Below are positions 36 through 34,576 of a stretch of 56,771 bases of DNA, piece by piece (positions within the stretch are counted from its first letter, which is position 1; every line of letters begins with the position of its first letter). Source of the stretch: Acidimicrobiia bacterium (GTDB lineage Bacteria; Actinomycetota; Acidimicrobiia; Spongiisociales; ZC4RG35). The translations under genes and the position numbers were made by a program. The stretch covers positions 1-56,771 of the forward strand of contig JAAXHN010000043.1 in NCBI GenBank assembly GCA_012270885.1. Reading direction: 5' to 3'. The notes under the pieces were generated by a model. That model made no database searches and was not told where the DNA came from. It was given only the letters and a program-made list of their open reading frames with translations.

Positions 36-1340
36 TCAGAAGTCGATCACCGTGATCTCGTCGACCGGCCAGCGGGTAAGGACTTCGGCCCCGTTCTCCC
101 GCACCACGATCATCTCTTCCACTCGCATGCCGTAGCGCCCGTCCGGTTCCTGGGTCTCGACCGCCATGGTCATCCCTTCCAGTATCTCGACAGGATGGTC
201 CACCGAGATCCCTCTCCAGATCAGCGGCCTCTCGTATAGCTGCAGTCCCAGTCCGTGTGCCCACTGGTTGGTGGTCATCTGCCAGTAGTGGTCGGCGCCG
301 TACCAATCCATGTGCTCGCCGTCGCGGTCCGGAAACCGCATGGCCACCTCTCCAGTGGTCACCCCCGGCCGGATCGCCTCGATCACGTCGTACAACCAGT
401 CACGAGCGCGCTGGTAGGCGTCGATGGAACTCTGCTTCGGCTTGCCTATCGAGAATGTTCGGTAGACGCACGACCGATAGCCCTGGAAGGTAGCGCTGTA
501 GAAGTCGGCATACATGATGTCGCCGGGGCGGAGCATCCGATCGGTGGTGTTGGCCTGATGCTTGGGCCAGGTGTTCGGGCCGCTGGTGAGATACCCTCCC
601 TCCACCGTTCCCCCCCTGCGCAGTACCGCTTCCACCGCCGCTCCCCAAACCTCCTGTTCGAGCATGCCCGGCTCTGCAGTTTTCTTGATCGCCATGAAGC
701 CGGCCTCACAGATCGCCGAGAGGACCCGGAAACACTCGATCTCGTCCTTCGTCTTGGTCTGGCGAGCGGTGTGCAGGGCATCGGCGGCGCCCGCCCGGAC
801 ATCCAGACCCCGTTCCCGGAGTTTGGCGGCCAAGGCCGACTGGGTGGAATCGATGCCCACCGGATCGCGATGAACGTCGTAGTCGTGGGCAGCCTCGACG
901 ATCAGGTCCGCCATGGTGTTGAGCAGGAACTCCCGGGCCGAGGGCGACCCGCTGGCGCGGGGCACGTTCCCCAGTCCGGGTGCCGCATAGCGAATATCGG
1001 GCAGCCAGGGGCAGTTGGCTCGCTCGTTGCTGGCATGATCGGCTGTGTCCCAATGCACGACGTCCCCCCCGGCGGTGAGAAAGCTGTAGTGATCGGCGCC
1101 CGAACCGCCCAGCATTGCCAGTCCGGTGACGTACCGAATGTTGGGATCGTCCAACAGGAGCACCGAGCCCAGCCCGGCCTCGGCGATGTGATGCTGAGCC
1201 CGCGCTTTGCGTTGGTCGCGCATCCGGGCCATGTTGATTCGTTCCTCCCAGTCCACGGCCATGGTCCCCAAGGTGCCTTCCATGTATGTCGGCTCGTAAA
1301 GGCTCATCGTGTCCCTTTCGTTGTTTGTTGCAGGTGTCAT
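36..1340 (-). CDS. M24 family (Xaa-Pro peptidase/creatinase/DddP-like) metalloenzyme
   Basis: N-terminal DPNIRYVTG. Pita-bread-fold motifs ADF, HGLGL..YE, AVET, RVEE. ATGA overlap with the E2 stop at 1337-1340. Alternative ATG at 1307 with an AAAGGGAC SD. Confidence 0.85.
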   Translation of the reverse strand: MTPATNNERDTMSLYEPTYMEGTLGTMAVDWEERINMARMRDQRKARAQHHIAEAGLGSVLLLDDPNIRYVTGLAMLGGSGADHYSFLTAGGDVVHWDTADHASNERANCPWLPDIRYAAPGLGNVPRASGSPSAREFLLNTMADLIVEAAHDYDVHRDPVGIDSTQSALAAKLRERGLDVRAGAADALHTARQTKTKDEIECFRVLSAICEAGFMAIKKTAEPGMLEQEVWGAAVEAVLRRGGTVEGGYLTSGPNTWPKHQANTTDRMLRPGDIMYADFYSATFQGYRSCVYRTFSIGKPKQSSIDAYQRARDWLYDVIEAIRPGVTTGEVAMRFPDRDGEHMDWYGADHYWQMTTNQWAHGLGLQLYERPLIWRGISVDHPVEILEGMTMAVETQEPDGRYGMRVEEMIVVRENGAEVLTRWPVDEITVIDF

Positions 1341-22839: not shown

Positions 22840-24090
22840 CTACCCGGCCAACGGAACGGCGTCCACGGGATGCAGTTCACCACCGGTTGACTGGATGATG
22901 ATCCAGTCGTCAACCAGTCGGAGTCCCTTCTCGTTGAAGCGCAAGGGCTTGCCGCGAGGAGTGACGAACCCATGCTCGTCATTCATCAGGGGAGCAACGG
23001 CCGAATGGTCGGTCGTTCCTGCCGCCTCGATCGCCGCGATCAACTGCAGGGCCGCGGTGTAGCCCAGTTCGGACCACCAGTCGGGTGCATGGCCGAACTC
23101 GGCTTCATATGCCTCGGAGAAGGCTGCCGCTTCGGGGATCGACTCGTCCAGAATCCACCCGGTGGAACTGTAAATGCCTTCGGAGAGATCACCCAGGGCT
23201 TCCACTTCCGGCGGCGTGTACACAACCTCGTTGACCATGATGTCACCCTCATAGCCGATCTCACGGGCGGCCTGGACGGCGTTCACGACCACGTCCTTAC
23301 CCCACAGACCGAGATACAGCAGGTCCGGATCGTTACCGACGCCCTTGGTCACTTCGACCCGGGCTTCGGCGGTCCCGTAGGGGAAGTACACCATGCCGGT
23401 GTACTCGAAGTCCGCCCCGGCCTCTTCGTCGAAGATACGGGTGAACTCATCATGGGTGAGACGCACCCAGTCGGAGTCGACGCCCACACCCTGGACCCGC
23501 TTGTAACCCTGGGAGATCATCCAGCGGGCCAGCACCGACAACGCGTTGCTGTCGGATTGGCTCTGCTTGACAGGAGCGCGGATGTGCACCACACCCTCGT
23601 ATCCCTCTTCGGTTATCAACTCTGACCCGCATGCGGTCACAACCAATGGCATGCTGACCTCGGCCGTGACGTCCTTCATCGCCACGCAGGTGGTGGCGTC
23701 GTTGCCGCCGGCCACTCCGGCCACGCCGTCGGCGATCGCCTTTCTCGCCGATGCCACCGACTCGTCGGCCGAGTAGCCCTCGTCGTAGTGGATTACTTCG
23801 ATCTGGCTTCCCAGTAGTCCTCCGGCCGCGTTCTTTTGCATCACGGCCAACTCGAACCCGTTACGCATGATGTCGCCCAGGCCGCTTGCCACCCCGGAGT
23901 TGAACCAGATGGTGCCCAGCTTGATGGGCTCCGCCGGTTCGGGAGCGGCGGTGGTGGTTGGGGCCGCAGTGGTGGTGGGAGCTGCCGTGGTCTCGGCCGC
24001 TTCTTCTTCTCCGTCACCACAGGCGGTGGCGACGAGAGCCAGGACGGACAGCACTACCAATACTCGTACCCAAGATCTACGTTTACTCAT
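22840..24090 (-). CDS. HAAT-family (LivJ/K-like) ABC substrate-binding lipoprotein
   Basis: Lipobox ATAC, IKLG, NAAGGLLG.QIEVI..D. Start at ATG 24090 with a GGAAGGAG SD; the ORF-track start is 24138. Confidence 0.9.
   Translation of the reverse strand: MSKRRSWVRVLVVLSVLALVATACGDGEEEAAETTAAPTTTAAPTTTAAPEPAEPIKLGTIWFNSGVASGLGDIMRNGFELAVMQKNAAGGLLGSQIEVIHYDEGYSADESVASARKAIADGVAGVAGGNDATTCVAMKDVTAEVSMPLVVTACGSELITEEGYEGVVHIRAPVKQSQSDSNALSVLARWMISQGYKRVQGVGVDSDWVRLTHDEFTRIFDEEAGADFEYTGMVYFPYGTAEARVEVTKGVGNDPDLLYLGLWGKDVVVNAVQAAREIGYEGDIMVNEVVYTPPEVEALGDLSEGIYSSTGWILDESIPEAAAFSEAYEAEFGHAPDWWSELGYTAALQLIAAIEAAGTTDHSAVAPLMNDEHGFVTPRGKPLRFNEKGLRLVDDWIIIQSTGGELHPVDAVPLAG
23942..23995 (-). repeat. 3 x 18-bp imperfect tandem repeat encoding a (E/T)TTAAP linker
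   Basis: Protein reads ETTAAPTTTAAPTTTAAP. Confidence 0.85.
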
Positions 24091-24244
24091 ATACCTGCCT
24101 TCTCCTTCCGGACCCATGCCACCAAAGGGGATGGACATAGGGTCACGCTGCTCTTCTCGTTCTCAGTCAATCTCGAAGGAAATGCCCCACCTGACGCTTC
24201 CAGGCGGGACACTCTCATCGAAATGCCCGTTTACCGGAATCTCT

Positions 24245-24259
24245 ATCCGATATACGGAC
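24245..24259. promoter_or_regulatory. Putative IclR-family operator
   Basis: Palindrome TCCG-ATATA-CGGA (minus strand GTCCGTATATCGGAT) resembles the GTNCG-N5-CGNAC IclR/PcaR/PobR motif. It lies about 155 bp upstream of the first operon gene. Confidence 0.6.
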
Positions 24260-24419
24260 GCTAGTAACCGCGGACGGTCCGCGTCCAGAAATCGGAGAGT
24301 TAATTTTCGGGAACCTATCCGAACGGGTTCAACTCACGTGATGCCCACGGTCGGCCGCTCGCTCCGAGGGAGACCCGATCGGCCGTGAAGCCCTCATCCG
24401 GGCAGCCGGGGCGTGGGAC

Positions 24420-24839
24420 TCAGCGAACCTGGTCCAGGTTTTGGAGGCGCAACCGACCCTGAGCAACCATCTTCCCATCCGAGGCCCGGGTTATCGTGAC
24501 CTGCCAGATCTGTTGACTCCGCCCCTGGTGGACTGGCACGGCTTCCCCATCCAGGCGCCCCAGACGATGGGAACGGCAGAAATCAGTGGCGTTGTGGACG
24601 CCGACCGCCGCCAGCATGCCCTGCTCCTGGGCCCACATGAAGGCGCCCACCGAGGCCAATGTCTCCACCATGGTGGTGTGCAGTCCGGCGTTCACCATAC
24701 CGAACGGTTGATGGTGCTCTTCCCCCACTTCAACATGCCCGCGCACCCTCGATGAGGACGACGCGTCGAGAACGATGCCCACCATCTCGGCGAACCCACC
24801 GCCCACCCCCAATGCCACAGGATCTATCACGACCCCCAA
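24420..24839 (-). CDS. PaaI family hot-dog thioesterase
   Basis: HHQPFGMVNAG...ETLASVGA, HQGRSQQIWQV. Confidence 0.88.
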   Translation of the reverse strand: MGVVIDPVALGVGGGFAEMVGIVLDASSSSRVRGHVEVGEEHHQPFGMVNAGLHTTMVETLASVGAFMWAQEQGMLAAVGVHNATDFCRSHRLGRLDGEAVPVHQGRSQQIWQVTITRASDGKMVAQGRLRLQNLDQVR

Positions 24840-24855
24840 CTTTACCGGCGATCTC

Positions 24856-26001
24856 CTATCTACCAGTCGCCCATTCCTTCAAGCGCCGGACTGCTTCAGC
24901 GATGTCTGCGGTGGACTCCGAGTAGGAGAAGCGAACCCAACGATCTCCGTGCTGCGGGTCAAAATCTATTCCCGGAGTGGCCGCCACGCCTATCTCCTCC
25001 AGCCACCGACCGCACAGGGTTGGAGAGTCCATGCCCAGATGGGAGACATCGGCGTAGACATAGAACGCCCCATCCGGTGGAGCGATCCGCGTAATGCCGG
25101 CCTCAGCCAACCCTGCCACCAAAACCCCACGGCGTTCGGCGTACGCGGCAACGTTGGCATCCAATTCCTCGGTACAGTCGAACGCCTCCAAAGCGCCTAG
25201 CTGTGAGATCGTGGGCGGGGCGATGAACAGGTTCTGAGCCAATCGCTCCAGCGGGCGGAACATCTCGGGCGGTACCACCAGCCACCCCAGCCGCCAGCCA
25301 GTCATCGAAAAGTATTTGGAGAAGCTCTGAACCACCACCGCCGAATCGCTGAAATGCAGTGCGCTCGCTGCCCGTTCCCCATACTCGATCCCGTGATAGA
25401 TCTCATCGGAGATCAGGACAGCCCCTGAATTCGAGCAGAATTCCGCAACTGCCCTCATCTCGGCGGCTGTCAGCGTGACGCCGGTGGGATTGGAGGGACT
25501 CGCCACCACCAGTCCGTCCAGCGGACCGGCCCTCTCCAGACGCTCCACCGAAGGAACGAAACGGGTTTCGGCATCCACTGTGACTTCCACCAGGTCCAAC
25601 CCCAGGGCGGTGAGAACATTGCGGTAGGCCGAGTAGCCGGGAACGGTCATGGCTACCCGGTCACCGGGATCGAACAAAGCCAAGCAGACCAGCACAAAGC
25701 CGGCGGAGGCCCCGATAGTCATCACCACCCGATCGGGCGAAACATCCAGTCCGTATCGCTCACCGTAGAACCGCCCGATCCTCTCTCGGAGGGCCACCAG
25801 CCCGGTAGCAGCCGTGTAACCGAGGCGGTCGGTCGTCAATCCCCTCCGGGCCGCCTCCAGCACCCGGGAGGCAGCGGGCGTCATAGGCTGACCCACCTCC
25901 AAATGGAGAACATCGCCGCCCGACACCTCCCTTGAAGCGGCGGCCTTCATCACCTCCATCACATAGAAGGGAGGCACCTGAGAGCGGAGAGACTCCTTCA
26001 C
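24856..26001 (-). CDS. Class I/II PLP aminotransferase (aspartate aminotransferase-like)
   Basis: [36 protein letters not shown]. Start set at GTG 26001 after GGAGAAG. Confidence 0.93.
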
Positions 26002-26014
26002 CGCTTCTCCGGCT

Positions 26015-26677
26015 CTATCCGGCCGCGGGCCGAGTTTCCGCAGGAGTGCAGTAGGAGACGCCGGTTCCGCCCAGTCCGCAGTAGCCCCAGGGGTTTTTGG
26101 CCAGATACTGCTGGTGGTAATCCTCCGCGTAGTAGAAGGGCTTGTCCACCCCGATCTCGGTGGTGATCCGGTCGTAACCGTTCTTATACAACTGCCTCTG
26201 ATAAGCCTCCAGGCTTGCCCAGACCACCGGCAAATTCTCCTCGCCGCGGACATACACCGCCGAGCGGTATTGGGTGCCGAAATCATTACCCTGCCTCATC
26301 CCCTGGGTGGGATCATGTCCCTCCCAAAAAACCTGCATCAGTCGATCGAGGCTGATTTCCCCAGGCCTGAATACAACCTGCACCACTTCGGTGTGTCCGG
26401 TCATACCCGAACAGACCTCCTCATAGGTCGGGTTGGGAGTCAGTCCTCCCGCGTATCCAGCCGCTGTGGAATACACCCCTTGGGTCTGCCATAACATTCG
26501 CTCCGCCCCCCAAAAGCACCCCATACCGAACCAGATGATTTCGGTGTCCTCGGGAAATGGAAGAACGATCCGCGCTCGGGAAACTTCATGCAATTCCGGT
26601 ACTGAGAGCGGACTCTGCCGACCGGGTAAAACCTGACTATCATCAGGAAAAGTGCTGGGCTTTTTGCGCCATGACAT
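26015..26677 (-). CDS. msrA: Peptide methionine sulfoxide reductase A
   Basis: [48 protein letters not shown]. Confidence 0.97.
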
Positions 26678-26738
26678 GTGCCCTGAGGCTACCAAACACC
26701 CGCGCTCAGTACAACTGCTATCTATGTCGGAGAGGCAA

Positions 26739-28823
26739 TCAACCTAAAGCGCCAAACCACCTGTCATGAAGTTTCTGATAAACGCCGCTTTCTATTAGGT
26801 CCAAAAGGGCGAGATTCAGTTGCTCCCGCAGCTCGTAATCGTTCTCGTTGATGGCCAGCCCGTATTGGAGCTTCTCGAAGAGGGGTCCGAACGTGGCCAC
26901 CCCGCCGGCTCCCTCATGGGCGGCGTGATAACGAAGAACCGGAGCGTCGAACACGACCGCCTCGACCTCGCCCTGTTCCAGCAAAGCGTAGGCGTCATCG
27001 ATCTCGTCCACCAGCACCGGACCGACCCCGAGGGTAGAGAGATAAGCCTCCCCTGCCGAGCGAGAGACTGTCGCTACTCGGTGGCCGGGCAGGTCGGCGG
27101 GTCCCGAAATCTCACTCCGCAGTTCGTTGACCGCCAGGGAAGAGGCGATGGAGGCGGTAAAACTGGCGAACACCAGGGTCCCCAATGCAATCCACACCAA
27201 GGCGAACATTCGCCCCCATCCTCCCCGGGCCACTTTGTCGCCATATCCAACCGTGCTCATAGTCACCACCGACCAATAGAAAGAGTCCCATATCCCCTGA
27301 CGGTAAGGCATGGCGAAATCGGGGTTGTGACGGCGTTCCAGCCACCAGATTACATGGGCGGACACCAGCACTACCACACCGAACAAAACCAGCAGCCAGG
27401 GCAGATCGGAGGAGACGATTGCCTCGAAGAAAATAGCGATCCGATCACCAAAACCTCGCGAAGCCTGCGTTGGCGCCAGGATAGTCAATCCTGTATCCAA
27501 CACAGGTAAGGAAAAGTCGACCTCATGTTCACGGGACTCGGTAATCGCCACCCCTCCCAGCGCCACGCTGGCGACGCCGCGGTTGATGTCATCGATCTGC
27601 TTGGCCACCGTGTCCACCGCGTAGAAGTCCACCTCCATTCCCAGGCGAGCGGCGAGAAGACGCGCCAACTCCACGTCGAATCCGCTGTAGGAGCGGTCGT
27701 CATAAATCACGAATGGTGGAAGGATGCGGGCGGCCACCGCCAGCCTACCCCCGGGTGCCGAGACAGCTCCACCGGCGTCCTCCAACCCTACGGCTTCCGG
27801 GTCCGCCAACTCTATCCAACCCTCCACGACGGCCTGATTGGCGTCCACCCATTCTTGGGCGTGGCGGCGGATGTCCTCGGGATCCCCCTCGTCGGCCACC
27901 ATCAGGGCGTTCTGCGCAGAGATGTCCCCCAGGGGTATCGCCACCTGCTCCAGGAGCCTCCGGATGGAAGGATTGGCTTCCAGGAACCGAGTGTTGGCGA
28001 CAACCCGTATGTCATTGGGAGGCCAGCCGACCTGGCAGGGATCGCTGGCGCATCCCGGGATCCCGGCGATGGAGGTCCGGTCCAGGTAGGCAGCCTGCTC
28101 CACGGGCAACGAAGGGAAAGGCGTCTCGAGCCAGACCACGTCCCGACCCGGCTGCAACTCGCCAACCGTCCAGTTGGGCGTCCATGTGTAGTAGAGGACC
28201 GGCTGCCCGGATCGATACCGATCGAATGTCGCCCTGATCGAGGGGGAGTAGGCGCCTTGAACCTGTTCAACCGTCTCGCCCAACCCATAGACCTCCAGGT
28301 GGTGTTCTATGATCGCGGCGCATCCCCACGAGGGTTCGCACCCGATCAGGTCGGCCAATCCGTCCCCATCCTCATCGAACAGCGCGGCGAGTTCGGGGCT
28401 GGCCAAGTCACCGAGACTGGTGATCCCGTGAGCCTCCGCGGTCGCCTTGTCCGCGAAGTATCCCTGCAACGCGCCATCGTCCACCTGGATTCCCACCAAT
28501 TCCACTTGGCCCTCTTGAAGAAAGGCGTCCTGGGTCGGGAACCACCCGTTCGCCCACAGGTCCACGTCGCCGACCGCTACGGCTTCGTAGAACTCGTCAT
28601 TGTCCATGGTGACAGGTCCCTCAACCTGATATCCGAGCCGCTGGATCAACAGACGGTAGACCTCGGCTTGGAACCAGCCGGTGTCCCAGGTAGCCCGCGC
28701 CATTCGCACCGGTTGGCTCTCGGCGCCTCCGTCCTCAGGCTGGGCCAGCGCCACTCCAGCCACTACCGGAGAAATCAGCAGGATCAACAGCATTCCCAAG
28801 ACAGTTGTGGAGACTCTGCGCAT
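26739..28823 (-). CDS. Fusion protein: ProX-type glycine betaine-binding domain + GluR0-like ligand-gated K+ channel (S1-M1-P-M2-S2)
   Basis: Signal peptide. ProX motifs ANGWFP, ADLIGC..SWGC, WTPNW. SBP family 3 lobe PPFV..GFDVEL..ITESRE..DFS, then a TM helix, pore helix and TVGYGD filter (27237-27254), a second TM helix, and the second lobe FDAP..YGLA..WFG. Confidence 0.9.
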
Positions 28824-29108
28824 GAAAGTTGTCCGGGTCGGCTGGGCCGAAGGCTAGCAAAGAGATGTAGAGGTCCTTGCTCAATCCTGCCTTGGGGTGT
28901 TCCACCAGGTGAAATAAAAAAGAGAGTCACCGATTTCACGACGCGTTCAAGGGTTTTTGGCTAGGGTCAACAACACCGCTATTTAGTAACGTCGTGTCAA
29001 AAACACGGAAAGGAGTGGCTGACCAGATATCGGCACGACCAAGAAACATAGGCCCGCCTAAATGAGGAAAGGAGGCGAAGATGGCCTTACAAGTAGAAAG
29101 GAGAGGCT

Positions 29109-30884
29109 ATGGCTGATCAAGAGCATCACGAGGACCTTGACCTCACAGCCGTCGCCGAAGCCTATGAAAGCTGGGAAGAGGATGAGCACCGCCGCCGCGA
29201 GGCGGCCATCCGGGACCGTGCGGAATTCCAGGGTCTTCAAATCGATCCTGACATCGACTTCTATCCCGAGGTGGCCGACCGGGAACCCGGTGACAAGAAC
29301 ATAGTCAAATGGGGATTCGACATACATCCCCAGGTGACTTTCATCGCCGCCGGATTCCTGTTGCTCTTCATGGCCGCCACCCTGATCTTCCCCGATCAAG
29401 CGAGCGACGTCTTCGGCGCGATTCTCAACTTCATCAATGAGAAGGTGGGCTGGCTGTACATCATCTCATTCAATGTCTTCATCGGCGCGGCGCTCTATTT
29501 TGCGCTGGGCAGGTACGGCAAGATTCGATTAGGTGGCCCGGGATCCCTTCCGGAGTTCTCCACCGCCGCCTGGTACGCCATGCTGATCTCAGCCGGTTTG
29601 GGCATCGGATTGATGTTCTGGGGTGTGGCAGAACCGATCTACCACCTCACGTCGCCGCCTCCCTTCTTCGACGGAGAACCTCTGACGGCAGAGGCGCAGC
29701 GAGCCTCACTGGCGACCTCCTATCTCCACTGGGGGATTCATGGATGGGCGCTGTACGGTCTGGTCGCCCTGGCTCTGGGATTCTTCGCCTACAACCGAGG
29801 ACTCCCACTGACCTTCCGCTCGGTCTTCTATCCGATTCTCGGCCCGAGGATCTACGGCGGATGGGGCAACGCGATCGACATTCTCACCGTGGTGGCCACC
29901 CTCTTCGGACTCGCCACCTCGCTGGGATTCGGGGCCGGTCAGGCGGCCGCAGGGTTGAACAAGGTATTCGGCCTCCCCTCGGACACCTGGTTCCAGATCG
30001 TCCTCATCGCTTTCATCACCGGGTTGGCAACCATCTCGGTGGTCGCTGGTCTGGACGCAGGCGTGAAGAGGCTGAGCTCGATCAACGTATGGCTGGCCGC
30101 AGCGTTCCTAGTGTTCGTGATGTTGGTGGGTCCGACTCTGTTGGTCCTTTCGCTTTATGTCGAGAGCATCGGCGTCTACATCCAGATCCTGCCGGAGTTC
30201 TCCTTCTGGAACGCCGCCCTGGTCGAGACCCAGTGGCAGCAGTGGTGGACCATCTTCTATTGGGGATGGTGGATCTCATGGTCTCCCTTCGTAGGCATGT
30301 TCATCGCCCGAATCTCCAAGGGACGCTCGGTGCGGGAGATGATCCTCGGTGTGATCATCCTCCCCTGCCTCCTGTGCTTCCTGTGGTTCGCGGTGTTCGG
30401 CGGAGCGGCCATGAATCTGCAAATGACCGGCGAACTGGACGTCGCCACCGCGGTCAACGAAAATGTAGCGACCGCTCTGTTCGTGATGTTGGAGGCCTTC
30501 CCATGGACCTTCTTCGTCTCGATAATCGGCATTTTGCTGTTGGTTTCGTTCTTCGTCACCTCTTCGGACTCAGGGTCTCTGGTGGTTGACCACCTCACCT
30601 CAGGAGGAAAGCTAGACTCGCCCAAGCCCCAGCGGGTGTTCTGGGCCTTGATGGAAGGCGCAGTGGCGTGCGTGTTGCTGTTGGGAGGTGGCCTTTCGGC
30701 GCTCCAAACGGCCGCAGTGGCCACCGGACTGCCTTTCCTATTCGTTCTCCTGATCATGCTGTGGAGCCTCAAGAAGGCCTTCGACGAAGAACTCGACCTC
30801 CTGGAGAGTCACTACGACGAGGCCATCTTCAAAGACCAACACAGCGGCTTGCTTGAGAGGCTTGGCAAAGGAGGTGCAGAGTGA
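29109..30884 (+). CDS. BCCT family (betaine/choline/carnitine) transporter, BetP/OpuD-like
   Basis: AGLGIGLMFWG, HWGIHGW, WTIFYWGWWISWSPFVGMFIARIS, FVTSSDSG. Confidence 0.96.
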   Translation: MADQEHHEDLDLTAVAEAYESWEEDEHRRREAAIRDRAEFQGLQIDPDIDFYPEVADREPGDKNIVKWGFDIHPQVTFIAAGFLLLFMAATLIFPDQASDVFGAILNFINEKVGWLYIISFNVFIGAALYFALGRYGKIRLGGPGSLPEFSTAAWYAMLISAGLGIGLMFWGVAEPIYHLTSPPPFFDGEPLTAEAQRASLATSYLHWGIHGWALYGLVALALGFFAYNRGLPLTFRSVFYPILGPRIYGGWGNAIDILTVVATLFGLATSLGFGAGQAAAGLNKVFGLPSDTWFQIVLIAFITGLATISVVAGLDAGVKRLSSINVWLAAAFLVFVMLVGPTLLVLSLYVESIGVYIQILPEFSFWNAALVETQWQQWWTIFYWGWWISWSPFVGMFIARISKGRSVREMILGVIILPCLLCFLWFAVFGGAAMNLQMTGELDVATAVNENVATALFVMLEAFPWTFFVSIIGILLLVSFFVTSSDSGSLVVDHLTSGGKLDSPKPQRVFWALMEGAVACVLLLGGGLSALQTAAVATGLPFLFVLLIMLWSLKKAFDEELDLLESHYDEAIFKDQHSGLLERLGKGGAE

Positions 30885-31819
30885 CGAAGAGATCGAACGT
30901 ACTGATTGCCGCTCTTGCGGCTTTCGTGCTGGTGCTTTCGGCCTGCGCCACCGAGGGTCTGGACCGGCCGGTGACGATTGCTCGGGCCGACTGGAGTTCG
31001 GGCCATATGCAGGCCGCCATCTACGCCCAGTTGATCGAGGAACTCGGACACGAGGTCACCGATCCCGCGTTGGCGGAACTCCAGCCCTTCTCCTTCTATC
31101 CGGCTTTGGCCGCCGCGCAGTACGACCTGTGGGCCAACGGCTGGTTCCCGAACCACGATATCTTCCTGGATGGGGAACTGGTGACCGGCCAGGCGGTGGA
31201 GTTGCCAATCGAACCCGTCGGCTATCAAGTAGCCAAGGGGGGCATTGAGGGCTTTATGGTCGACAAGGCCACGGCCGACCGATTGGGAATCACCTCCATG
31301 GCTGACGTAGCCGCCAACGCCGGCGTCTTCGACACCAACGGCAACGGCAGAGCCGACCTGATCGGATGTAACGCCGGATGGGGATGCCACACCTGGATCA
31401 ACGACCTGATCGCCGACGAGAGTTGGGGGGCCAACGTGGAGCAGATCTCCGGTAACTACGATGACCTGGTCCGAGGCGTCATCGACCGGGTGAATGCAGG
31501 TGAATCGGCATTGTTCTACGCCTATACGCCCAACTGGACCGCCGACTCCCTGGTGGATGGGCAGAATGCGTTGTGGGTGCACGAAGCCGCCGTCAACGAC
31601 ATCCGGGCGGTGGCTAACACCGACTTCCTGGATGACAACCCGGACATCCGCCGTCTGCTCGAAGTGGTGGCGATTCCGTTGAGCGACATCGCGGCTCAAA
31701 ACGCCAAGATGGCCGCAGCGGCTGAGTACTCCGACGCCGATGTGCAAGCCGACGCGGAAGCCTGGATAGCTGCCAACCGCGACAGGGTCGACAGTTGGCT
31801 GGCTATCGCCCGCGGCTGA
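30881..31819 (+). CDS. proX: ProX-type glycine betaine/proline betaine substrate-binding lipoprotein
   Basis: Lipobox [30 protein letters not shown]; GTGA overlap with the BCCT stop. Confidence 0.85.
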   Translation: MTKRSNVLIAALAAFVLVLSACATEGLDRPVTIARADWSSGHMQAAIYAQLIEELGHEVTDPALAELQPFSFYPALAAAQYDLWANGWFPNHDIFLDGELVTGQAVELPIEPVGYQVAKGGIEGFMVDKATADRLGITSMADVAANAGVFDTNGNGRADLIGCNAGWGCHTWINDLIADESWGANVEQISGNYDDLVRGVIDRVNAGESALFYAYTPNWTADSLVDGQNALWVHEAAVNDIRAVANTDFLDDNPDIRRLLEVVAIPLSDIAAQNAKMAAAAEYSDADVQADAEAWIAANRDRVDSWLAIARG

Positions 31820-31842
31820 TCTGAATCCGTAAGTAATCGACT

Positions 31843-31876
31843 GTTTCGGCTGGTGGGTCCTCCCGCCAGCCGAAAC
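31843..31876. terminator. Intrinsic terminator hairpin between convergent proX and purB
   Basis: GTTTCGGCTGGTGGG-TCCT-CCCGCCAGCCGAAAC, a 15-bp stem with one G-U pair. Confidence 0.75.
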
Positions 31877-31920
31877 CCTTTAAGGAAGCCCGGCCGGGCA
31901 GCCCGTCTACCGGCAGTCAA

Positions 31921-33249
31921 TCAGAGGGGCGACAGGGTCAGAGCGCGGAGCCGCTCGAAGACCACCGACGTCTCCTCCAGGAACCTCATCGGGTCGGATG
32001 CCTCTTCCAGCCTGTCCGCCGGGATGGTCACGTCGGGATCGGATGCCAACCTCTCCCATAGGACCTCGCCACCATCCAGCACTGCCGTAGCATTTCGCTG
32101 CACGATCCGGTAGGCGTCATCCCGGCTGAGGCCGGATTGTTGGATCAACTCCGACAGAAGCGCCCCGCTGACCACCAAACCACCGGTTGAATCGAGGTTG
32201 ACCCTCATCCGCGCCGGGTTCACCTCCAGACGCTCCATCAACCCGGTGAAGGTCACCAGCATGTAGTGGAGGACGGTGCAGGCGTCGGGAATGATCACCC
32301 GCTCGGCAGAGGAGTGGCTGATATCCCGCTCATGCCACAGCGCGACATTCTCCAAAGCGGCCGTCGAGTAACCCCTCAGCAACCGGGCCATTCCGGCCAT
32401 TCTCTCCGAGGTGATCGGATTCCTCTTGTGGGGCATGGCCGAAGATCCCTTCTGGCCGGGCCGGAATCCCTCCGCCGTTTCTCCAACCTCGTTGCGCTGC
32501 AGCAGGCGGATCTCGGTGGCGAATCGCTCCAGGGACGCCCCGGCCAAGGCGATTGCTCCCAGCAACTGCGCGTGGCGGTCCCGAGCGGTCACTTGGGTGG
32601 ACGCCGGTTCCGATCCGATCCCGAGCCTCCTGCAAACGTATTTCTCCACAGCCGGGGGACACTGGGCATAGGTACCGACCGCCCCGCTCACCTTTCCCAC
32701 CGCCACAGCCTGGCGGGCGGCGCCGAGCCGTTCGTGGTCCCTGGCCACCTGGAAGGCCCAGCCCGCCAGTTTGAGACCCCAGGAGGTGGGCTCGGCCCAC
32801 ATGCCGTGGGTGCGGCCCAACATTACGGTCCACTGATGCTCCAGCGCCGCCTCCTTAACCACCGAGAAGAGGCGCTCGACTTCACCGATCAACAGGCCGG
32901 CCGCCTCGTCCATGATCACGCCGGCGGCCGTGTCGACCACATCAGAGGACGTAAGCCCGTAGTGGACCCACTCCCCTCCCTCTTCCATGCCCGCCGCCAG
33001 GACGTCGACGAAGGCGGCCAGATCATGATTTATGACGGCCTCCCGCTCCGCAACTTGTTCGGGAGTGGGAACCGGCGCCTTCCGGATTGCCCTGACGGCT
33101 TCGGCAGGCGCCACTCCCGCCTCCGCCCAAGCCTCGAGCGCCAATTCCTCCACTTTCTTCCAGGTTGCCAAGCGCCGTTCAGCCGACCACAACTCGGCCA
33201 TCTCCGGAAGTGTGTAGCGATCAATCATTTCATCGGCCGGGGGACTCAT
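31921..33249 (-). CDS. purB: Adenylosuccinate lyase
   Basis: MIDRY (alternative start 33228), HYGLTSSD, GRTHG, GSSAMPHKRNP, LWHERDISHSS.ER. Confidence 0.97.
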   Translation of the reverse strand: MSPPADEMIDRYTLPEMAELWSAERRLATWKKVEELALEAWAEAGVAPAEAVRAIRKAPVPTPEQVAEREAVINHDLAAFVDVLAAGMEEGGEWVHYGLTSSDVVDTAAGVIMDEAAGLLIGEVERLFSVVKEAALEHQWTVMLGRTHGMWAEPTSWGLKLAGWAFQVARDHERLGAARQAVAVGKVSGAVGTYAQCPPAVEKYVCRRLGIGSEPASTQVTARDRHAQLLGAIALAGASLERFATEIRLLQRNEVGETAEGFRPGQKGSSAMPHKRNPITSERMAGMARLLRGYSTAALENVALWHERDISHSSAERVIIPDACTVLHYMLVTFTGLMERLEVNPARMRVNLDSTGGLVVSGALLSELIQQSGLSRDDAYRIVQRNATAVLDGGEVLWERLASDPDVTIPADRLEEASDPMRFLEETSVVFERLRALTLSPL

Positions 33250-33397
33250 GGATCCCGCCGCTTATGGGAGACTACCTGCCGACGCCCGGCCACTCAGCCA
33301 CAAATAAGCTGGAGGCGGCGAAGACGACCATAGGCTCCTATCCGATGTGCCTCGACGCCCACGCCGACGCATTCCCGGGGTACCTCCCATCGCGGAT

Positions 33398-34576
33398 ATG
33401 AGGCGACTGACCCTGGCCCAGGCCCGCCGGACGGCGATCAGCGCCACAGGGCTTGGCCTGTCCCGTCCCACCGGGCCGGTGGATGCCGACCATTACCAGA
33501 AGACCCTCGACACACTGGGTGTTATCCAGCTCGACTCAGTGAACGTGCTGGCCAGAGCGCACTATCTCCCTTTTTTCTCGCGGCTGGGCGCCTACCCCCG
33601 CGACCTCCTGGACCAGTGGCTCTGGACATCGCAGGAACTCTTCGAGTACTGGGGGCACGAGCGCTCCCTGATGCCGATCAACCATCGCCCCCTCTTCGCC
33701 CACCGAATGCGCGAGCAACCGCGAGGATGGATCGAGTCTGTGAATTACGACAACCCCGAATACGTGCAGGAGGTACACCGGGAAGTAGCTGAAAGGGGAC
33801 CGCTCCGCACTTCCGACCTGAGCGAGCCGGGGAAGTCCGGCGGATCGTGGTGGGGCCATTCCATGGGAAAACGCGCCTTGGAGTGGCTGTTCTGGAAAGG
33901 CGCGGTCACCGTGGCCGACCGCCCGAACTTCATCCGATGGTTCGACCTTCCCGAGCGGGTTCATCCTGCCTGGGTCATGGACGAGCCGCCGGTCGAGGGG
34001 CCGGAAGCCCTCCGTCGCCTGCTCCGCCTGGCTGTGGAGCACTGCGGCGTGGGAACGGCCGCCGATCTCGCCGACTACTACCGCATAGGCGTCTGGCCGG
34101 CCCGCAAAGCGCTCTCCGATCTGGTCGCCTCCGGTGAGATCCGGGAAGTCGAGGTGGAAGGCTGGTCGGAGTCGGGCTACCTGGATCCGGATGCCAGCAT
34201 TCCCCGGCAGGTCGGAGGACGGGCACTCCTCTCACCCTTCGATCCCCTGGTCTGGCACCGACCGCGGCTGGAGAGGCTCTTCGACTTCCGGTACCGGATC
34301 GAGATCTACATTCCCCGACCCAAGCGGATCCACGGCTACTACGTGCTGCCCTTCCTGATGGGAGACAGGATGGTCGCCCGCGTGGATCTCAAGCTGGACC
34401 GGCGCGCCAAGCGCCTGCTGGTGCTGGGCAGCTACGGCGAGCCTGAGATCGACGTGAACAGGGTCTGCCGGGAACTATCCGGAGAACTCGTGGACATGGC
34501 CGAATGGCTGGACGCCGGGGAAGTATCGGTATCCCCCAACGGCGACCTCGCGTCCCCTCTCGCCCAGTGTGTCTGA
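33398..34576 (+). CDS. ycaQ: YcaQ/AlkZ (HTH_42) family interstrand-crosslink DNA glycosylase
   Basis: IQLDSVNV (QxD catalytic motif), FSRLG, FEYWGHE, LLSPFDP, YRIEIY.P..KR.HGYYVLP. Confidence 0.88.
   Translation: MRRLTLAQARRTAISATGLGLSRPTGPVDADHYQKTLDTLGVIQLDSVNVLARAHYLPFFSRLGAYPRDLLDQWLWTSQELFEYWGHERSLMPINHRPLFAHRMREQPRGWIESVNYDNPEYVQEVHREVAERGPLRTSDLSEPGKSGGSWWGHSMGKRALEWLFWKGAVTVADRPNFIRWFDLPERVHPAWVMDEPPVEGPEALRRLLRLAVEHCGVGTAADLADYYRIGVWPARKALSDLVASGEIREVEVEGWSESGYLDPDASIPRQVGGRALLSPFDPLVWHRPRLERLFDFRYRIEIYIPRPKRIHGYYVLPFLMGDRMVARVDLKLDRRAKRLLVLGSYGEPEIDVNRVCRELSGELVDMAEWLDAGEVSVSPNGDLASPLAQCV

Follow-up and report, generated by a model that had tools for sequence, protein, structure and literature searches.

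Channels of the GluR0 type lack an amino-terminal domain, and their binding domain directly follows the signal peptide. The window considered here, a 56,771-nt stretch of an Acidimicrobiia genome (GCA_012270885.1, contig JAAXHN010000043.1), carries a gene for a 694-aa protein in which a complete ProX-type solute-binding domain appears to precede such a channel. This raises two questions: is the junction between the two halves genuine and, if so, what would a second, membrane-distal sensor contribute to a K+ channel?

From its N-terminus, the protein consists of a signal peptide, a ProX/OpuAC Venus-flytrap and a flexible stretch of about 20 residues, followed by S1, M1, the pore helix with its TVGYGD, M2 and S2 (Table 1). 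This is the architecture put forward in the original prediction, and all of the motifs quoted there are found in the open reading frame: ANGW (residues 91-94), SWGC (165-168) and WTPNW (214-218) in the outer domain, and AITESRE (426-432), TVGYGD and FDAP (625-628) in the channel half. Pfam, NCBIfam and PDB searches agree with it. OpuAC matches residues 38-327 (E 3.6e-47), and SBP_bac_3 gives a single split match over 368-691 (E 3.8e-26) that encloses Ion_trans_2 (483-563, E 5.6e-16); Lig_chan matches 476-579 (E 4e-12). The AF2 model (mean pLDDT 89.1, pTM 0.55) has membrane helices at 474-496 (M1) and 535-569 (M2), with the pore helix at 507-524. The chain ends at residue 694, right after the last S2 helices (663-679 and 681-690), with no third membrane helix. 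The signal-peptide region is modelled as a helix at 2-17, with residues 17-34 at pLDDT below 50, and the upper domain has no confident placement on the lower one, as reflected in the pTM and in a linker of pLDDT below 50.

Table 1. Features of the channel gene and of the adjacent divergent operon (positions in the window).
Feature	Position	Strand	Basis and remarks
ProX-domain/GluR0-type channel fusion gene	26739..28823	-	694 aa + stop, ATG start; ORF, Pfam, NCBIfam, AF2
Predicted Sec signal peptide, residues 1-27	28743..28823	-	MRR, hydrophobic core, ALA/QP; sequence reading
N-terminal ProX/OpuAC-type domain, residues 36-340	27804..28718	-	1r9l match, Foldseek, conservation, dN/dS
Flexible linker between extracellular layers, residues 341-359	27747..27803	-	pLDDT < 50 at 348-357; low conservation
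S1 half of GluR0-type ligand-binding domain (T428, R431), residues 360-455	27459..27746	-	2pyy piece 1
Membrane part, residues 456-570	27114..27458	-	Ion_trans_2, Lig_chan, AF2 helices, Foldseek
TVGYGD K+ selectivity signature, residues 524-529	27237..27254	-	Sequence; family conservation
S2 half of ligand-binding domain (S589, D626), residues 571-694	26742..27113	-	2pyy piece 2, secondary structure
Divergent intergenic region, shared by channel gene and BCCT operon	28824..29108	.	Alignment of 11 same-genus regions
BCCT-family transporter, 591 aa	29109..30884	+	Divergent from channel gene; Pfam BCCT 2.6e-186; TIGR00842 above cut-off
Solitary OpuAC-type binding protein, 312 aa	30881..31819	+	Lipoprotein-like N-terminus (LSAC); Pfam OpuAC 5e-34

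An assembly artefact or a decaying pseudogene could have joined a ProX gene to a GluR0 gene; the source assembly is fragmented (235 contigs), and two assemblies, G010 and G205, carry the gene in two frames. Against this, an open, GYGD-containing frame is present in all 80 Acidimicrobiia loci that were fetched, 79 of them 689 aa or longer and the remaining one truncated where its contig ends, and many of these loci lie on megabase-size or complete chromosomes. Among 61 related genomes, 21 have a full-length fusion match, in a single frame in 20 and in two pieces in G010. A Logan contig piece (X1, 26771-27955), which may derive from the source sample, spans the junction with 0 differences. It is the only listed piece to do so: those of run X3, from a second study, end at 27704 and restart at 28004, and 27746-27806 is left unbridged. 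With dN/dS at 0.13-0.22 in every domain, the artefact or pseudogene reading has a vanishingly small probability and is refuted for practical purposes; the junction on which the original prediction depended is genuine.

The identity of the outer layer is well defined. Its score against the NCBIfam ProX equivalog NF008334 is 340 bits for a cut-off of 215, and E. coli ProX (1r9l) matches residues 44-338 in the PDB sequence search (E 1.3e-62) and is recovered from the model by Foldseek at TMt 0.89, rmsd 2.5 and 37% identity. Pfam gave no ANF_receptor or Peripla_BP match in the fusion protein. Since the fold is of the OpuAC and not of the LIVBP/ANF_receptor type, the distal layer was gained separately from that of eukaryotic ionotropic glutamate receptors (iGluRs), in keeping with the two-layer receptor-channel of independent origin that had been proposed.

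Statements on the pockets of both binding domains rest on alignments. Counted along the HMMER alignment, W94, W166 and W214 correspond to 1r9l chain positions 65, 140 and 188, which we take to be the residues that reportedly form the cation-pi box of E. coli ProX, and C162/C168 correspond to 136/142; the outer domain has two disulfides, C162-C168 and C258-C263. A point absent from the original prediction concerns Gln98, which is aligned with ProX His69, presumably the residue hydrogen-bonding the ligand carboxylate. Of the 168 family members, 144 have His at this position and 19 have Gln, and Gln98 could likewise hydrogen-bond a carboxylate. The general Trp-prism principle is described in PMC2861598. 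A two-copy complex prediction of residues 36-345, asking whether outer domains pair like the amino-terminal domains of iGluRs, scored 0.00 and gives no answer either way.

Below the linker, the binding core of Nostoc GluR0 (2pyy) matches (E 7.9e-36) as two pieces on either side of the membrane part, over 361-460 and 572-691, and its Arg and Asp align with R431 and D626. In iGluR and binding-protein sites, the cleft Arg holds the alpha-carboxylate of the ligand and an acidic residue its alpha-amino group. The positions predicted to contact the ligand side chain are different from those of GluR0-like channels: 426 is mostly Ala in fusion rows versus Ser/Thr in GluR0-like rows, 590 is Ala versus Thr, and 652 is Val versus Glu (Leu in the 694-aa protein), while 588 is variable among fusion rows (Arg in the 694-aa protein). 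The ligand is for this reason not assumed to be glutamate, and, judging by these residues, need not be. The amino-acid-binding site originally described is thus upheld for the carboxylate Arg (ITESRE) and the Asp (FDAP), but its side-chain contacts are unlike those of GluR0-like channels. Foldseek also aligned the lower half with LBD-TMD chains of AMPA receptors, the highest TMt being 0.63. The sequence YFTA in M2, nearly invariant among distant members, shows, as read from the sequence, no more than a partial resemblance to the SYTANLAAF-like gating motif that sits in the inner helix of iGluRs.

Conservation was counted over 168 family members. W94 is kept in 162, W166 in 165 and W214 in 160 (with 6 Phe); C162 and C168 in 168 each, and C258 and C263 in 166 each; R431 in 166, T428 in 164 and D626 in 156; TVGYGD in 163. 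The predicted ligand-contact residues are hence kept in both extracellular domains, namely the Trp box and two disulfides above, and Thr/Arg (S1) and Ser/Asp (S2) below. In the 40 relatives with 30-50% overall identity to the 694-aa protein, which we used as the deep-divergence group, mean identity is highest in the N-terminal domain (49.7%), followed by S2 (43.5%), the membrane part (39.2%) and S1 (38.3%), and lowest in the linker (7.9%). Median dN/dS over 974 non-independent pairs is 0.18 for the N-terminal domain, 0.22 for S1, 0.13 for the membrane part, 0.21 for S2 and 0.37 for the linker; purifying selection acts on all modules. In one subclade of 5 members the filter, GREGWGK, is not of the K+ type and W94 is missing, so not all members of the family can work as proposed below.

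The fusion is not confined to this window: it belongs to a multi-phylum family already present in public databases under the automatic name ProX, all NCBI-named members among the matches being called 'ABC transporter substrate-binding protein ProX'. Clustering at 50% identity leaves about 11 full-length representatives, 36-50% identical to the 694-aa protein. Many of the 80 loci carry record titles of sponge-associated Acidimicrobiia, for example Candidatus Spongiisociaceae, Poriferisodalis, Poriferisocius and Aldehydirespirator, and a sample of 301 genomes from across the phylum contains 5 with the fusion, two of them from other classes. For a distant member, P0127, 44 of 98 matches combine OpuAC with channel domains, and four NCBI-named carriers among them are metagenome-assembled genomes (MAGs) of a Xenococcaceae cyanobacterium, a Cyanobacteria bacterium, Desulfosarcinaceae and Chloroflexota. 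A metagenome scan with pore motifs as patterns kept 80 loci, 79 of which are not full-length fusions: most matched the pore region only and about 25 the channel half, L093 being the sole full-length fusion. In the trees, all 59 sampled fused N-terminal domains lie in one cluster of 69 rows (SH-aLRT 92), and the 59 channel halves fall in one group of 65 tips, separate from 54 of 60 sampled channels without the extra domain. The fusion is old and spread over several phyla, and its origin is probably single.

The architecture had been put forward as a candidate novelty, and the literature outside subscription journals yielded no description of an OpuAC/ProX-GluR0 fusion. The domain network of a 2010 survey of 100 prokaryotic iGluR-like proteins is without OpuAC/ProX in the accessible part of that paper (PMC2950845). 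In a comparative paper on sponge Actinobacteriota, the main text contains none of the terms betaine, BCCT, ion channel and potassium, and the supplements could list the gene (PMC11706023). What appears to be new is the ProX-GluR0 two-layer fusion; the GluR0-type channel and the ProX-type domain are each known singly.

The genes around the fusion bear on its possible function. Next to it are a BCCT gene, a solitary OpuAC binding-protein gene whose start overlaps the BCCT stop, and MsrA, with no ProV/ProW-type ABC genes alongside; the LIV-type ABC genes further downstream are of another family. The 312-aa OpuAC protein is 39% identical to the N-terminal domain of the channel and groups with the free ProX part of the tree, apart from the fused domains. 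A BCCT gene followed by such an OpuAC gene lies within 8 kb of the channel in 74 of the 80 loci, and among the 61 related genomes a BCCT ortholog is present in 21/21 with the fusion and 0/40 without it, a co-occurrence that represents few independent events because only 4 genera carry the fusion. The same pair also sits beside the channel in two genomes of other classes (G169 and G195) and in G018 and G035; the distant locus L093 has another OpuAC binding-protein gene and a Usp gene nearby, and no BCCT on its 10-kb contig. In Actinomycetota, the fusion moves as a single module together with a BCCT carrier and the lipoprotein OpuAC binding protein of that carrier, which strengthens the link to compatible-solute handling that had been suggested. 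The 448-aa GYGD-containing open reading frames beside fusions (L035, L040 and L060) were considered as partner subunits; those of L035 and L040 are rejected, being APH-like kinases and not channels.

In the divergent intergenic region, conserved elements resemble TAnnnT and may act as promoters: GCTAsCCT, some 25-30 nt upstream of the channel ATG, and, on the other strand, ACCCTAG. Two RNA runs of the same organism label (X9 and X10) contributed 0 reads, a result that speaks neither for nor against expression. A simple sigma-70 consensus scan of 26600-29200 returned 0 promoter-like sites and 1 terminator-like site, below the shuffle mean, and the one Rfam match over 24000-33500 was at chance level. 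Elsewhere the genome encodes one TrkH and two more Ion_trans_2 proteins, so the channel is not needed for bulk K+ uptake.

Much of the earlier interpretation is retained, namely the architecture, the genuine junction, the separate origin and the link to solute handling, with the qualification concerning glutamate. The reading we favor, as fairly probable, is a ligand-gated K+ channel of the GluR0 family that has acquired a further sensor layer distal to the membrane; the channel would be tuned by a quaternary-ammonium solute and tied to the uptake of osmolytes. By analogy with the GluR0 family, the subunit would assemble as a tetramer. A ligand of the alpha-amino-acid type, which need not be glutamate, would close the lower domain, and the resulting pull on the M1 and M2 linkers would open the gate as it does in GluR0 and iGluRs. 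The upper domain would close on a trimethylammonium- or dimethylsulfonium-type solute bearing a carboxylate, candidates being glycine betaine, proline betaine, carnitine and DMSP. In NMDA receptors the distal layer tunes gating; by analogy, closure of the upper domain may alter the opening probability. K+ conductance would thereby depend on the presence of an importable osmolyte, and K+ would move as counter-charge and as replaced osmolyte while the neighbouring electrogenic BCCT carrier loads betaine-type solutes. Whether K+ enters or leaves when the channel is open depends on the membrane potential relative to E_K.

Other roles for the outer layer have to be weighed against this one. If it merely helped folding or tetramer assembly and bound no small molecule, it would resemble eukaryotic amino-terminal domains, which drive assembly; this is a very unlikely role for a domain that exceeds the curated ProX equivalog cut-off and keeps its three pocket Trp and pocket-side disulfide in 160-168 of the 168 members, including those with as little as 36% identity. 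The N-terminal domain could instead be the primary agonist sensor of a betaine-gated channel, with the lower domain a ligand-independent or constitutively occupied transducer, as its standing as the best-conserved module at deep divergence and the drift of lower-domain side-chain contacts away from the GluR0-like state (Ala at 426 and 590, Val at 652, variable 588) might indicate. The near-invariance of R431, T428 and D626 is, however, hard to explain without an alpha-amino-acid-type ligand, and the upper domain reaches the gate only through a flexible linker of low conservation, which makes this alternative improbable.

We hold it equally improbable that the ProX domain is a tethered binding protein that captures substrate for the BCCT carrier or another transporter and is simply anchored on a monoderm surface, with gating independent of it. 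The adjacency and co-occurrence of fusion and BCCT would fit such a role, as would the OpuAC-type protein already employed by the BCCT operon, and transporters with tandem or fused binding domains are known, in GlnPQ SBD1-SBD2 (6h30, Foldseek rank 2) and, from the accessible part of PMC2861598, in OpuA. Yet the BCCT operon brings a lipoprotein binding protein of its own, and the fused domain has closer relatives than that protein; in L093, the fusion is found on a 10-kb contig that lacks BCCT. We know of no BCCT carrier that uses a binding protein, and our literature search found none. The fusion also occurs in MAGs named Cyanobacteria and Desulfosarcinaceae, which are diderm and whose binding proteins need no anchor. 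Finally, the filter and the ligand Arg and Asp of the channel half are conserved as strongly as the N-terminal domain. An extension of the favored tuned-channel reading goes further: the fusion would be a natural two-input K+ channel forming one functional unit with its neighbours, its outer layer reporting a quaternary-ammonium osmolyte and its inner layer an amino acid, and both layers jointly opening a path for K+ that balances charge and exchanges K+ for betaine during import by a BCCT carrier assisted by a binding protein. We regard this extension as a tentative, rather doubtful possibility.

Known systems resemble the fusion in part. It shares with GluR0 of Synechocystis and its Nostoc punctiforme homologue (2pyy) the S1-M1-P-M2-S2 order, TVGYGD, the lack of a third membrane helix and the Thr/Arg (S1) and Ser/Asp (S2) ligand residues, and differs by about 330 extra N-terminal residues that make up a complete ProX-type domain and by its deviating side-chain contacts (426, 588, 590 and 652). 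With ProX, the glycine betaine/proline betaine binding protein of the E. coli ProU ABC importer, it has in common the fold, the Trp box, the C136-C142 disulfide and the equivalog score; the fused domain is, in contrast, covalently attached to a channel and encoded beside a BCCT gene, being neither free in the periplasm nor near ProV/ProW-type genes, and has Gln for His69 in the 694-aa protein. Eukaryotic iGluRs (AMPA, kainate, NMDA and plant GLRs) also place a distal domain and a linker before a split binding domain on a P-loop pore, but, as read from the sequence, the distal domain here is OpuAC and not LIVBP/ANF_receptor, M4 is lacking and the filter is of the K+ type. The ABC importers GlnPQ and OpuA likewise tether binding domains covalently in series to a membrane protein, OpuA carrying a fused OpuAC (PMC2861598, accessible part), but feed a translocator, whereas the fusion has a channel pore inside its second binding domain. 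A man-made chimera of the ectoine-binding protein EhuB and the GluR0 pore, gated by ectoine according to the part of the preprint available (bioRxiv 10.1101/2021.01.27.428399), likewise combines a compatible-solute binding protein with a GluR0 pore; there the binding protein replaces the lower domain instead of being stacked above it, and the ligand is ectoine.

The predicted osmolyte-sensing channel could serve as a natural scaffold for biosensors, and its current name, that of an ABC transporter substrate-binding protein, hides a channel. Layered glutamate receptors are commonly portrayed as something that eukaryotes built from the simple bacterial GluR0; the fusion family shows that bacteria independently placed a distal layer on such a channel, recruited from another class of binding proteins. 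With 694 aa and no auxiliary subunits known, the fusion would be a compact system in which to study how a distal clamshell communicates with a gating one. In osmoregulation, the step that couples compatible-solute availability to K+ flux is poorly defined, and the fusion suggests a molecular link there that can be tested. Sponge host tissue is rich in betaine-type solutes and amino acids. Were the two-input reading true, the layered iGluR design would have been invented twice, independently; the fusion might reveal the first BCCT system dependent on a binding protein, and would explain in molecular terms how compatible solutes come to replace K+, as has long been observed.

The product of the channel gene is almost certainly a GluR0-family channel carrying a ProX-type outer domain (table below). 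The original prediction of a ProX-like domain followed by a substrate-binding protein split by a TVGYGD pore is borne out by the open frame, by the Pfam matches, by the E. coli-type ProX equivalog of NCBIfam (340 bits; curated cut-off, 215) and by comparison of the sequence with solved structures, in which residues 44-338 match 1r9l, the glycine betaine-bound form of E. coli ProX (E 1.3e-62), and pieces 361-460 and 572-691, on either side of the membrane segment, match 2pyy, the binding core of Nostoc GluR0 (E 7.9e-36). The cage of tryptophans is complete, as predicted: counted along the alignment, W94, W166 and W214 correspond to 1r9l chain positions 65, 140 and 188, and C162 and C168 to positions 136 and 142, which reportedly form the cation-pi box of ProX and the adjacent disulfide, respectively (Schiefner 2004). 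The Trp-prism principle of OpuAC-type proteins is described in PMC2861598. An N-terminal signal peptide is predicted by inspection of the sequence, and the chain stops after S2, and therefore has no third membrane helix. An AlphaFold2 model based on a 101-row alignment is confident inside the domains (mean pLDDT 89.1) but not in their relative placement (pTM 0.55; pLDDT <50 at residues 348-357). Foldseek searches of the PDB ranked 1r9l first (TMt 0.89, rmsd 2.5) and the GlnPQ SBD1-SBD2 tandem second, with many AMPA receptor LBD-TMD chains at lower ranks (TMt <=0.63).

Features of the channel gene, its protein and the divergent operon. Genes are in window nucleotides, all other positions in residues of the channel protein. 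Kept, occurrence in 168 collected proteins classed as fusions by BLASTP; identity, mean versus the window protein (n=40 members at 30-50% overall identity); dN/dS, Nei-Gojobori median (974/3160 pairs with 0.05 < dS < 1.0, pairs non-independent).
Feature	Position	Strand	Description	Kept	Identity	dN/dS
Channel gene	26739-28823	-	open frame of 694 codons, ATG start			
BCCT carrier	29109-30884	+	divergent from channel gene; Pfam 2.6e-186			
Solitary OpuAC protein	30881-31819	+	312 aa, lipoprotein-like N-terminus			
OpuAC	38-327		Pfam E 3.6e-47			
SBP_bac_3	368-691		Pfam, single stretched match			
Lig_chan	476-579		Pfam, within SBP_bac_3 match			
Ion_trans_2	483-563		Pfam, within SBP_bac_3 match			
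N-terminal domain	36-340				49.7%	0.18
Linker	341-359				7.9%	0.37
S1	360-455				38.3%	0.22
Membrane part	456-570				39.2%	0.13
S2	571-694				43.5%	0.21
M1	474-496		predicted helix			
Pore helix	507-524		predicted helix			
TVGYGD	524-529		follows pore helix	163/168		
M2	535-569		predicted helix			
W94	94			162/168		
C162, C168	162, 168			168/168 each		
W166	166			165/168		
W214	214		plus 6 Phe	160/168		
C258, C263	258, 263			166/168 each		
T428	428			164/168		
R431	431			166/168		
S589	589		plus 17 Thr	151/168		
D626	626			156/168		

By analogy, the protein would work like GluR0, but it bears the amino-terminal domain whose absence defines GluR0. Likewise, its outer domain is a bona fide ProX-type domain, but the fusion is not a free binding protein of an ABC transporter. 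The likeness to eukaryotic iGluRs is limited to the layering, since the distal fold differs, M4 is missing and the filter is K+-selective by sequence, in line with the proposed separate origin of the two-layer design.

The junction between the two halves could have been an assembly artefact, and this is excluded by its recurrence. A one-genome-per-species scan returned 180 stretches encoding a relative, and in all 80 loci kept the same open frame contains the pore motif; 79 of these frames reach at least 689 aa, the other ends at a contig edge, and many of the loci lie on Mb-size or complete chromosomes. A full-length match was found in 21 of 61 related genomes (G039, unpublished, entering these tallies only, as a genome without the fusion gene), namely the genome of the window, all 16 others of its genus (including G010, where the match is split), two other genera of the family and 2 genomes of another family. 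A contig piece from a public run, which may be the source sample, spans the junction (window 27746-27806) with 0 differences; none of the contig pieces listed for a second study bridges it. In two assemblies, the match to the fusion gene changes frame partway (G010:C126:4127-6152; G205, locus L175, 6016-8000), suggesting either a frameshift or an error of assembly.

Both clefts and the filter are conserved, including the ligand-binding Arg and Asp (R431 and D626) that had been reported as retained. Several positions nevertheless speak against simply assigning betaine and glutamate as the two ligands. Where ProX has His69, the window protein has Gln (His in 144 and Gln in 19 of the 168). When 38 fusion rows were compared with 39 GluR0-like channels devoid of the extra domain, position 426 was Ala in 26/38 versus Ser/Thr in 36/39, position 590 Ala in 25 versus Thr in 33, position 652 Val in 26 (Leu in the window protein) versus Glu in 28, and position 588 variable (Arg in the window protein) versus Gly in 24. 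Moreover, five members (P0123, P0133, P0271, P0272 and P0282) lack W94 and carry the filter GREGWGK. This subclade has a non-K+ pore sequence and Asn or Asp in place of W94; it comprises long forms of ~1005 aa, in which a pair of OpuAC domains precedes the channel (P0271, P0272 and P0123, the last of 1008 aa), and short forms of ~690 aa (P0133 and P0282). The longest contigs recorded for long and short forms have the same lengths (29437 and 28453), so the two forms may be neighboring genes and heteromeric partners.

The family is broad. Among 715 word-index matches, at least 120 are clusters at 69-84% identity that share this set of Pfam domains, and an exhaustive search of 50%-identity representatives found about 11 full-length proteins (36-50% identity), one of them P0123. 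With the distant member P0127 as query, 44 of 98 matches combined OpuAC and channel domains, four of them with NCBI names that indicate a Xenococcaceae cyanobacterium, a 'Cyanobacteria bacterium', Desulfosarcinaceae and Chloroflexota. The fusion occurs in 5 of 301 sampled genomes of the phylum of the window, two of which belong to other classes. All 80 loci come from Acidimicrobiia MAGs, many named as sponge symbionts (Candidatus Spongiisociaceae, Poriferisodalis, Poriferisocius, Aldehydirespirator). In quick, arbitrarily rooted trees computed without bootstraps, the 59 sampled fused N-terminal domains fall in a single 69-row cluster (SH-aLRT 92), some of whose 10 'free' rows are clearly fragments or, in a few cases, fusions of another kind, and 47 free ProX-like proteins, including the solitary binding protein of the window, lie outside. 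The channel halves of the 59 fusions lie within a group of 65 tips; of the six rows lacking the extra domain, four have 70-165 residues ahead of S1 and may be truncated. These topologies are consistent with, without proving, a single ancient fusion event, after which the gene spread both vertically and horizontally. ProX-type domains near the channel-fused clade are also joined to other modules, i.e., SBP_bac_11 and VWA (P0138), a WD40 propeller (P0140), caspase and PEGA (P0153), or SBP_bac_3 without a pore (P0149).

The channel is linked to a betaine-type uptake operon. The BCCT stop overlaps the start of the solitary OpuAC gene (30881-30884), whose product shares 39% identity with the N-terminal domain of the channel and lacks its residues ~234-269. 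In 74 of 80 loci, a BCCT homolog and, after it, a gene for such a binding protein are found no more than 8 kb from the channel gene; five of the exceptions have <1.4 kb of upstream sequence, and the sixth, L040, is one of two fusion copies in the same genome (OZ220747.1), the other of which, L061, has the pair. The three genes are likewise neighbors in G018, G035 and the other-class genomes G169 and G195, and in G205 the two-frame channel is followed by BCCT, the binding-protein gene being unmatched. Among the 61 genomes, a BCCT ortholog (E <= 1e-60) is present in exactly the 21 bearing the fusion and in 0 of the 40 others, a co-occurrence that represents few independent events because only 4 genera are involved. 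In L093, the sole distant full-length metagenome locus (49% identity), the 10-kb contig lacks BCCT, and the channel gene adjoins genes for a universal stress protein and for another OpuAC binding protein. BCCT carriers are not known to use binding proteins, and a literature search found no such case; the pair may be a binding-protein-assisted BCCT system.

Upstream of BCCT, an 11-codon ORF (MALQVERRGYG, window 29081-29116, + strand) with its own GAAAGGAGG ribosome-binding site ends in a TGA overlapping the BCCT start codon at 29109 (ATGGCTGA); this layout of ribosome-binding site, ATG and overlap recurs in aligned same-genus loci, and a leader peptide or translational coupling is possible. On the other side (window 24856-26695, - strand), the aminotransferase ORF as listed (476 aa) shares ~270 nt with the MsrA ORF; because its Pfam domain begins only at residue 125, translation probably initiates further downstream. 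Both genes flank the channel in the closest relatives only (11/80 loci). A LIV-type (Peripla_BP_6) binding protein (22840-24138, - strand), with a lipoprotein-like N-terminus followed by a Pro/Thr/Ala-rich linker, heads an apparent branched-chain amino-acid ABC transporter cluster, with ORFs downstream to ~17700, found beside the channel module in only 10/80 loci. Other K+ routes in the same genome (94% completeness) are a single TrkH and two additional Ion_trans_2 proteins; Kup and KdpA were not found there.

By likeness to GluR0, the channel would assemble as a tetramer, in which closure of the lower clamshell on an alpha-amino-acid-type ligand would open the gate. The outer domain likely binds a betaine-type solute, its clamshell presumably shutting on a quaternary-ammonium or sulfonium carboxylate. 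Acting via the linker and via contacts made to the upper lobes of the layer below, this closure would shift the gating equilibrium; we consider such modulation about evenly balanced, perhaps slightly favored. A preprint on an engineered EhuB-GluR0 chimera reports that the GluR0 pore can be driven by a binding protein for a compatible solute (bioRxiv 10.1101/2021.01.27.428399). K+ conductance would then be conditional on an importable osmolyte and could provide counter-charge for electrogenic BCCT uptake, K+ being exchanged for organic solute, a charge-shunt role that we propose tentatively and regard as rather unlikely.

The architecture does not appear to have been characterized already: full-text literature searches, with supplements and subscription journals outside their scope, found no paper on an OpuAC/ProX-GluR0 fusion, and no OpuAC/ProX domain is listed in the domain network of a 2010 survey of prokaryotic iGluR-like proteins (PMC2950845). 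The sequences are public under automatic names, such as 'ProX' and in one IMG case the joint name 'proline/glycine betaine ... substrate-binding protein/voltage-gated ...', so anyone looking through domain databases could come upon the architecture. While its proposed function is inferred throughout, there is solid evidence that the fusion is genuine and conserved; it lends itself to experiments and is of clear interest for the evolution of iGluRs and for osmoregulation.
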